Origin: Escherichia phage RCIP0319
Sequence record: PV464738.1
Direction: 5' to 3' (one strand)
Length of the DNA: 64,000 nt
Translations under genes and position numbers: made by a program
The notes under the pieces: generated by a model
Seen by the model: the letters and a program-made list of their open reading frames with translations, nothing else
Told to the model about the DNA's origin: nothing
Database searches by the model: none
Shown: in pieces, positions 60,311 to 61,101 of the stretch
How the letters are laid out: the number at the start of each line of letters is the position of its first letter
Numbering within the stretch: the first letter of the stretch is position 1

Positions 60311-60589
60311 TGGATAAAAGAACACTCGTTTACGTGTTTTGAATAATGGAATGTGTGCAATGGGTCGCTTTATGCGACCTTTTGTTGTTTTCGATGGAAA
60401 TTTTTAAGTGAGTGGCGTGAAACGTGGTGGGTTGAGGCATGGTTGATACGGATAGAATTTAGGATATTGTGGATGAAAATAATAAATAAAATGGAAATTT
60501 GGATTTATTTTTGGAGTATGAGCATTGGATTTTGGATTTTAGTGTGCGGATTTTGGAGAGTGAACCGTGGTGTGTGGTGGCGAAAGCCG

Positions 60590-60897
60590 CGCCGCGCCTG
60601 GATTCTTTGGCTGAAGCGTACACTCTTACGGATAGGTTTTTATCCGTATCATGGCGCTAGGGTGCGCCGCGCCTGGATTTGTACACTGAATCTTACGGAT
60701 GATACGGATGATACGCCATTTTTCCTTATTGTAACCAGAATTATTTCAAAAATTAATTAACTCCATTTTGAATTAATTTAAATTAATTTTTTTCTACATC
60801 CTCATACTTATGTTAATTTATATATTTAACGTATTATCCGTAAGATATAAGTAAAAACAAAGACTTGCGGCAATACGGATGATACGTAATGATACGC
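60590..60897. repeat. Second iteron-like cluster sharing an identical 29-mer with the 6628-6890 region
   Basis: GAATCTTACGGATGATACGGATGATACGC (about 60688-60716) is identical to about 6666-6694; further TACGGATA / TATCCGTA units, AT-rich core with AATTAATTTAAA, and duplicated GCGCCGCGCCTGGATT. Confidence 0.6.
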
Positions 60898-61101
60898 TTC
60901 GACCAGCCAGCAGCGGCTAAGTCATTGATTTGCATAACAAGCGGCAAAAGGTATGGATTTCTTTTATACGTATCAAACAGTACACCAAGCACCACGGTCC
61001 GCTATTCATTAAGCATTGTGATTTATGTACGTTTACAGCCAATTTGAACATCAATCTGCACTTGAATATAATGTTCAATCATTGTATAATTCACACTATT
61101 A

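Follow-up and report, generated by a model that had tools for sequence, protein, structure and literature searches.

What is the role of a long, repeat-rich stretch without genes that a phage keeps twice in its genome? This question is raised by Escherichia phage RCIP0319 (sequence record PV464738.1), of which 64,000 nucleotides, here called the window, were analysed. The window belongs to a Wifcevirus and shows 90-97% identity with 28 E. coli/Shigella phage records; Wifceviruses are ~68-kb myoviruses related to Pseudomonas phage PB1. The gene-free stretch occupies 60311-61124, next to terS, the gene of the small terminase subunit (TerS), and it shares repeats with a second locus at 6619-6900, within the head-gene cluster. 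A sequence-only reading of this DNA had proposed two copies of one cis element, recognised by one protein and serving as paired origins, packaging sites or regulatory sites. We regard 60311-61124, with moderate confidence, as the packaging-initiation and genome-terminus region of Wifcevirus, a pac-type site at which terminase would assemble and cleave. Among the three proposed roles, packaging is the one with direct evidence, and this evidence concerns the terS-proximal copy only.

Genome ends of related phages map inside the terS-proximal element

The position of the terminus in RCIP0319 was set by homology to relatives with mapped ends. For phage Mansfield, PhageTerm predicted a direct terminal repeat (DTR) of 3,673 bp, and the record was opened at its boundary (PMC6753283). 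We found that Mansfield base 1 aligns to window position 60765, and that the last bases (...AATTAACTCC) and the first bases (ATTTTAAAA...) of that record meet at 60764|60765. The WFC record, which came from another laboratory, contains both DTR copies (3,784 bp, 100% identical) and starts at the same base as Mansfield; the terminal repeat of WFC was reported as about 3.7 kb (PMC6563267). In addition, the ECO71P1 record has its end within about 10 bp of 60764|60765.

The right boundary of the DTR (...CATGGGTCTTT|TGGTGCG) was the same homologous base in four of five records (Mansfield, WFH, Ro157lw and SP13) and lay 81 bp further on in WFC; in RCIP0319 it is expected ~440 bp past the end of the window. 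Since this boundary is homologous in four of the five records, the Wifcevirus ends are fixed, not headful, and the shared end base also ruled out headful packaging with a fuzzy right end, which had been considered because the DTR makes up ~5% of the genome. As in other phages with fixed-end DTRs, the end sequences are identical and the boundaries fall at homologous positions among relatives; the repeats are exact, and permuted, imprecise ends of the P1/SPP1 headful kind were not found. The right boundary has repeats of its own. In Mansfield (3540-3673, or ~64,300-64,437 in window terms), it is preceded by ATCATT(A/C)GC several times and by TGTAACG twice, and a tandem array of five GACCCAC units lies ~170 bp beyond it. 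All these repeats are unrelated to the iterons of the left end, which are described below.

Ends at the homologous place were also identified outside Wifcevirus. In the Serratia phage MTx, a DTR of 3,566 bp was called by PhageTerm; its opening lies within an element flanked by iterons, 376 bp before terS. For JG024, a Pbunavirus, PMC10913387 reports that 36 of 161 long reads begin at 59,376 +/- 5 and that a matching pac restriction fragment was seen. We found that this position falls in the core between GGTAATTTGG-type iterons at 59,318-59,337 and 59,446-59,463, and that it lies 601 bp upstream of the gene at the terS position. The RefSeq record of PS44 (NC_028939) has JG024 position 59,377 as its first base. 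Inside this record, terS and a neighbour gene occur twice (602-1950 and 60,998-62,346), the left copy runs straight into terL, and ~6 kb of genes lie between the right copy and the record end, a structure that is either an assembly artefact or an unusual end structure. Because of this irregularity, we used PS44 only for its record start, as support. For SCUT-S1, a pac site was predicted in an AT-rich region, according to PMC6521218. Thus, the terS-proximal element appears to mark the packaging start in the fixed-end genera and in a genus that is reportedly headful.

Iterons and GC boxes frame an AT-rich core around the cut

The sequence-only reading had drawn the gene-free region from 60311 to 60929. 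The region proved real, but its right limit is 61124, because the open reading frame (ORF) called from TTG 60930 is terS drawn too far upstream; the gene truly begins at ATG 61125. From left to right, the region and its border hold a terminator, a G/T-rich tract, the GC box, iterons, the AT-rich core with the cut, further iterons, σ70-like promoters and terS (Table 1). The repeats that had been listed earlier, namely the 29-mer, a duplicated 16-mer, a palindrome, five GGATTT copies and the AT-rich core, were all recovered where they had been placed.

The repeats concentrate strongly at the two loci. The 29-mer GAATCTTACGGATGATACGGATGATACGC occurs exactly at 6666-6694 and 60688-60716 and at no other site in the window. 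With two or fewer mismatches allowed, the 13-mer TACGGATGATACG gave 11 matches, while ~1.0 would be expected by chance, and 10 of them fall in the two loci; so do 16 of the 21 copies of the heptamer TACGGAT, in loci that make up 2% of the window. The small palindrome, TACGGATA...TATCCGTA at 60627/60641, was found to consist of two inverted iteron units. Iterons flank 60764|60765 on both sides, with 60688-60716 (+) on the left and 60830-60846 (-) and 60873-60898 (+) on the right. The inverted iteron pairs with 60690-60706 (17 nt, 94% complementary), and the arms taken as single-stranded DNA give a 17-bp stem (z = -3.4). Within the core, 60748-60827 has 13.8% GC and is the second lowest-GC 80-bp window of the 64 kb; the lowest is 6708-6787 (8.7% GC), in the core of the second locus. 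The 11-mer cut-site motif occurs once in the window.

We then examined the conservation around the cut in an alignment of 12 Wifceviruses. Left of the cut, three unrelated sequence versions were present, in which three islands are invariant: GCCGCG(C/A)CTGG of the GC box, ATCTTACGGATGATACGGAT of the left iterons, which stands amid otherwise mosaic sequence, and AAT.AACTCC|ATTTT, so that the cut-site motif is kept in all 12 phages. Right of the cut, within the DTR, everything is conserved, including the invariant σ70-like promoters at 61044-61090. A search of IMG/VR with an iteron 22-mer gave matches in Wifcevirus contigs only.

Table 1. Features of the terS-proximal region and of the internal locus (window coordinates). 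Conservation values are mean pairwise identities among six phages.
Feature	Position	Strand	Remarks
Intrinsic terminator	60362-60390	+	GGGTCGC-loop-GCGACC and T-run; closes the rightward early-gene operon
G/T-rich, C-poor tract	60380-60600	+	Four of five GGATTT copies; three 21-bp-spaced TTTTGG units (60509-60577)
GC box, copy 1	60589-60604	+	16-mer GCGCCGCGCCTGGATT
Small palindrome	60624-60651		Two inverted iteron units (TCTTACGGATA / TATCCGTATCA)
GC box, copy 2	60664-60679	+	16-mer GCGCCGCGCCTGGATT; core GCCGCG(C/A)CTGG in 12/12 aligned Wifceviruses, flanks unrelated
Left iteron array	60688-60716	+	29-mer; tandem TACGGATGA, 9-bp period; identical to 6666-6694
AT-rich core	60717-60829		~110 bp, between inverted TACGGATGA repeats
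Cut site AACTCC|ATTTT	60759-60769	+	Left virion DNA/DTR end between 60764 and 60765, by homology
Right inverted iteron	60830-60846	-	CGTATTATCCGTAAGAT; pairs with 60690-60706
Right GC box	60864-60872	+	CTTGCGGCA
Distal iterons	60873-60898	+	ATACGGATGATACGTAATGATACGC
Two overlapping σ70-like promoters	61044-61090	+	TTGAAC-17-TATAAT and TTGAAT-17-TATAAT; face terS; consensus matches only
ATTTGCACTAT copies	61102, 61116, 61602, 61782, 61899, 61986	+	Span 61102-61997, bracketing terS
terS	61125-61598	+	Small terminase subunit; first gene inside the DTR; starts 360 bp downstream of the cut
Upstream gene	6001-6437		90.0% identity
Internal paralogous element	6619-6900		Within the head-gene cluster
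Iterons of internal element	6619-6644, 6666-6694, 6790-6816, 6846-6863, 6869-6892	-, +, -, +, -	
Internal element, conservation	6629-6900		97.8% identity
GC box of internal element	6695-6707		
AT-rich core of internal element	6708-6787		
GCGCGGCT boxes	6829 and 6902		Second box just beyond the element bounds
Promoter stretch after internal element	6901-7006		100% identity
σ70-like promoter	6949-6977	+	TTGCCT-17-TATAAT; precedes the head-protease gene
Protease gene	7007-8000		96.5% identity

A paralogous element lies in the head-gene cluster

The earlier proposal of one cis element in two copies was supported by the alignment of the two loci. The stretch 6640-6900 is colinear with 60660-60920, with 59% identity over ~240 bp, and both follow the order iterons, GC box, AT-rich core, inverted iterons and distal iterons; the cores have the blocks AAAT.AATTAA and TAATTTAA.TT.ATTTTTTT in common. 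Judged by this colinearity, 6619-6900 is a full-length paralogue of the terS-proximal element. Its arms as single-stranded DNA give a stem of ~30 bp (z = -7.7), and the element is as conserved as the flanking genes. It does not contain the cut-site sequence, since it reads AATTTA|AAATT where the terS-proximal copy has AACTCC|ATTTT. Of the suggested pair of packaging sites, therefore, the terS-proximal copy stands, with the left end and DTR boundary of relatives in its core, while its partner, placed earlier at 6590-6990, has neither a known end nor the cut-site sequence. We also considered the second locus as the right DTR boundary and rejected this candidate, as it lies ~16 kb from the left end (the boundary lies at ~3.7 kb) and other repeats occupy the boundary.

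Two further observations were made around this locus. A metagenomic Wifcevirus contig in IMG/VR (UViG_3300045988_152943, 68,520 bp) has its end 4 nt beyond the left iterons of that element, which is likely an assembler break at the shared 29-mer and not a physical end. Moreover, CTTGCCGCGCCTGGCAATG at 6343-6360, in the gene upstream of the element, repeats the GC-box core GCCGCGCCTGG of the terS-proximal copy, and CGCCTGGCAATGG recurs at 6586-6599, at the left edge of the internal element.

The iteron changes together at both loci in three genera

In PB1 (Pbunavirus), the two syntenic positions are likewise taken up by gene-free gaps: one (12619-13171) precedes the protease gene, and the other (58592-59511) precedes gp79, the homologue of TerS (38.6% identity). 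The 65.8-kb PB1 genome contains eight matches to G[GT][TA]AATT[TA]GG, every one of them in these two gaps, where the two lowest-GC windows of that genome are also found. In MTx (Myosmarvirus), the two loci have ACTTTTCG(T/A) iterons and identical blocks of 25-40 nt in common; a Serratia iteron 15-mer was also run against IMG/VR, where its low-complexity pattern gave at least 120 unrelated matches. The iteron thus differs by genus, and within each of the three genera one iteron is present at both loci, as expected if one sequence-specific protein reads both. Related GCGGC(A) boxes lie on the same side of the core as the right GC box in PB1, JG024 and MTx, and such boxes flank the cores in all three genera. 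This distribution indicates that the two-locus pair is ancient in PB1-like phages, and it agrees with the single reader protein that had been suggested.

A packaging-initiation site is the favoured explanation

In the mechanism that we propose, a phage-specific DNA-binding protein, with TerS as the first candidate, would occupy the iterons on both sides of the core, and its binding would loop or destabilise the AT-rich DNA. The large terminase subunit (TerL) would then cut AACTCC|ATTTT at 60764|60765, in a direction and by a chemistry that we infer for this phage. Packaging would run rightwards from the cut, with terS as the first gene packaged, so that the virion DNA and the ~3.7-kb DTR would both begin, on the left, with the cut base. 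The element at 6619-6900 would bind the same protein and, lacking the cut-site sequence, is taken as a non-cutting second assembly site; synapsis with the cut site, an origin, or control of the head operon are candidate roles for it.

Several points weigh against this proposal. In RCIP0319, the virion end is placed inside the element by homology only (to Mansfield, WFC, MTx, JG024 and PS44). Appreciable binding of DNA by the TerS of phage E217 was not seen in vitro, according to PMC9611059, which also reviews the structures of this small terminase. No TACGGATGA iterons were found at the right DTR boundary. Packaging does not explain why a full, highly conserved copy without a known end sits in the head-gene cluster, and a replication origin, too, classically shows iterons next to the most AT-rich DNA of the genome. 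Another, genus-specific repeat family, ATTTGCACTAT(G/A), occurs six times, always on the + strand, where 0.6 copies would be expected by chance, and it could be the true TerS recognition site or an operator, as a rival candidate to the iterons. This family crosses the minus-strand ORF 61713-62009, in which its copies read as a repeated (H/Y/N)SAN motif, and Mansfield and WFC carry seven copies at corresponding positions; in MTx, terS is directly followed by another repeat, AAAAATAAGCATGCTTA, in three copies. Finally, the element is missing upstream of terS in the Xanthomonas phage FoX7 (MT161387), with a TerS of 30% identity; there, terS is preceded only by a GC-rich spacer of 225 bp (56573-56796), which is without an AT-rich core or evident iterons. 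The element is therefore not universal among more distant relatives, and the two-element system may be confined to the branch of Wifcevirus, Pbunavirus and Myosmarvirus.

The strongest alternative is that both elements are replication origins, at which a phage initiator would bind the iterons and melt the core. One of the two would hold the terminus because its firing is tied to the formation of the end; the repeat could be duplicated, for instance, by synthesis primed from a nick at the left DTR boundary. We consider this explanation possible, and on balance unlikely. The two cores are the two most AT-rich windows of this genome and of PB1, several iterons flank each core and co-change at both loci of each genus, and an iteron array does adjoin a candidate AT-rich unwinding element, as at an origin. 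The layout is atypical, however: inverted arrays of 9-bp iterons flank the core on either side, while a usual origin has one-sided direct repeats of ~20 bp. Also in favour of origins, the internal copy forms the stronger palindrome (z = -7.7) at a place where packaging would have no evident need of a site, and the authors of the SCUT-S1 study suggested that its AT-rich pac region 'could be a replication origin' (PMC6521218). The ATTTGCACTAT family around terS would be available for TerS recognition, and the E217 result above also fits this alternative. Against it, neither locus contains a DnaA box (TTATNCACA), and no recognisable initiator gene is annotated in these genomes, although the absence of an annotation is weak evidence. 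Moreover, the terminus lies inside the core in three genera, for which a model with origins only would need the added coupling.

A third explanation is that the iteron arrays are operators or enhancers, through which a phage transcription regulator would act on the downstream promoters (61044-61090 and 6949-6977) and so on terS and the protease-scaffold-capsid operon, with the terminus in the AT-rich spacer for unrelated reasons. Each element does lie 150-330 bp upstream of σ70-like promoters that face a late-function gene, the promoter-containing stretch 6901-7006 is 100% conserved, and the core of the protease-proximal element of JG024 was predicted as a σ70 promoter of ORF22 (PMC3008698). 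The promoters are consensus matches only, however, typical operators are much smaller and less symmetrical than these arrays, the iteron occurs at no other promoter region of the window, and the cut in the core in three genera would be left unexplained. We therefore judge this reading weaker than a pair of origins and decidedly improbable.

A protein or a structured non-coding RNA from this region is essentially excluded and has very little probability in our view: ORF 60353-60760 does have 135 codons, and a few relatives annotate short ORFs in this spacer, but it starts with GTG, its product is 11% Trp and matched nothing in Pfam or PHROG, nor by tblastn in 50,697 phage records, unrelated sequence with many alignment gaps takes the place of its DNA in close relatives, and Rfam at gathering thresholds gave no match anywhere in the window. 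For these reasons we agree with the sequence-only reading that this ORF is an artefact, and a structured RNA, for which it had named a check, is not supported; in the alignment of the region, the left half is variable and fails to align, and the right half shows scarcely any variation.

The two copies may form a functional pair that is kept across PB1-like phages (Wifcevirus, Pbunavirus and Myosmarvirus), in which one iteron-binding protein joins or fires both; we offer this tentatively and consider it rather doubtful. In one possible version, a TerS twin-ring synapse would license the first cut in the style of the T4 'pac synapsis'. In the other possible version, the two would form an origin-and-terminus module whose left end is made by a nick in the origin-like element. 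Either version, if true, would provide a defined DNA substrate for TerS, whose DNA recognition has escaped detection, and if the sister site is an origin or a synapsis partner, replication or head-gene expression would be linked to packaging.

Relation to known packaging and replication sites

The pac site of P1 and the pacL-pacC-pacR site of SPP1 have repeats on either side of the cleavage region. The Wifcevirus element resembles them in its short repeats on both sides of a central cleavage region near the terminase genes, with packaging from the cut. SPP1 pacL is intrinsically bent; in the present element, the left side has a G/T-rich tract with TTTTGG units spaced by 21 bp. The P1 and SPP1 systems are headful with permuted, imprecise ends, in contrast to the fixed ends and ~3.7-kb DTR of Wifcevirus. 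Neither locus contains GATC, which excludes Dam control of the P1 kind, and we know of no full second pac copy elsewhere in the genome of P1 or SPP1.

With the T7-type DTR phages, Wifceviruses share exact terminal repeats, fixed boundaries and short-repeat arrays beside the repeat boundary. A further parallel is that T7 carries origin-like elements, made of a promoter plus AT-rich DNA, not only close to its ends but also at an internal origin, which lies at about 15% of the genome. Unlike T7, with its repeat of 160 bp, Wifcevirus has a repeat of ~3.7 kb and neither a phage RNA polymerase nor phage-specific promoters; its element is a large imperfect palindrome around the cut, and the right boundary has other repeats (ATCATT.GC and TGTAACG).

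The putative pac site of Pbunavirus (JG024 59,376; SCUT-S1) is the homologous locus. It too lies upstream of the terS position and past the primase-operon terminator, and its G/T-rich tract, iterons and AT-rich core are arranged alike. It differs in its iterons, which are of the GGTAATTTGG type, and Pbunaviruses are described as circularly permuted headful packagers in PMC10913387 and PMC12345254. The available text of these two papers has no mention of the iterons or of a sister locus upstream of the protease gene.

Iteron origins such as lambda ori and plasmid oriV likewise place repeated protein-binding motifs beside the most AT-rich DNA of the replicon. Here, in contrast, inverted 9-bp units stand on both sides of the core, no initiator gene or DnaA box is adjacent, and the virion end maps inside the core by homology. 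The T4 'pac synapsis', in which TerS pairs a gene 16 site with a homologue in gene 19, offers a parallel in two homologous terminase-associated sequences that lie kilobases apart. The T4 sequences are short stretches inside genes, unlike the non-coding palindromic elements of 240 bp found here, for which synapsis is only proposed. The twin-ring model is summarised in PMC9611059, and the C-terminal helix of E217 TerS may join two rings.

The DTR and its boundary were already known for Mansfield, WFC, WFH and MTx, as was a putative AT-rich pac site for Pbunavirus. The literature searched did not yield any account of how iterons and GC boxes are arranged around the cut, of the conserved G/T-rich tract, of the conserved paralogue that precedes the protease gene, or of the co-change of the iterons at two loci. 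PB1-like phages are among those most used in therapy against Pseudomonas aeruginosa, Wifceviruses are in development against pathogenic E. coli, and the literature is divided on whether Pbunavirus genomes are permuted. A defined cis element with its cut, iterons, GC boxes and sister copy offers concrete fragments for TerS and TerL binding and cleavage assays, and a guide to the choice of ends when synthetic genomes are rebooted. It also provides a test case of one lineage that switches between headful and fixed-end packaging while it keeps the initiation site.

Flanking genes and the G/T-rich tract

The first base of the window is that of the ATG of the large terminase gene. On the map of the related phage Bas99, terL is followed on the + strand by the portal, head and tail genes, then by replication genes on the - strand, and finally by rightward small early genes that end just before the gene-free stretch. 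The stem and T-run of the terminator are kept in WFC-type relatives, and the annotations of PB1 and JG024 also have terminators at the corresponding position. The gene that adjoins the element is by homology a real terS, as its product matched PDB 7UXE (deposited as 'Small terminase') with E = 1e-31, and the Mansfield record annotates the homologous gene as terS. A 52-codon ORF at 60889-61047 is an annotated gene in Mansfield (CPT_Mansfield_001) and in some other records; it gave no family match, its ATG reads ACG in Bas101, and it is probably not a gene. When both loci were checked for IHF sites, a single IHF-like match was found, at 60930.

The whole window has 26 GGATTT copies on the + strand; five belong to the gene-free region, and most of these five lie in the G/T-rich tract. 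Its 60380-60579 is the most G+T-rich 200-bp stretch of the 64 kb (0.695; mean 0.50, standard deviation 0.037), ~5 standard deviations above the mean. The GGATTT sequence is specific to this phage, and other G/T-rich sequence stands at the same place in relatives: in PB1, the corresponding tract has the highest G+T content of the genome, and a compositional tract is also present in MTx, Mansfield and WFC. The tract is thus evidently conserved as composition, not as sequence. A Chi-like function was considered, and no Chi (GCTGGTGG) was found in the tract. It possibly acts as bent DNA, or as a C-rich, G-poor signal on leftward transcripts.

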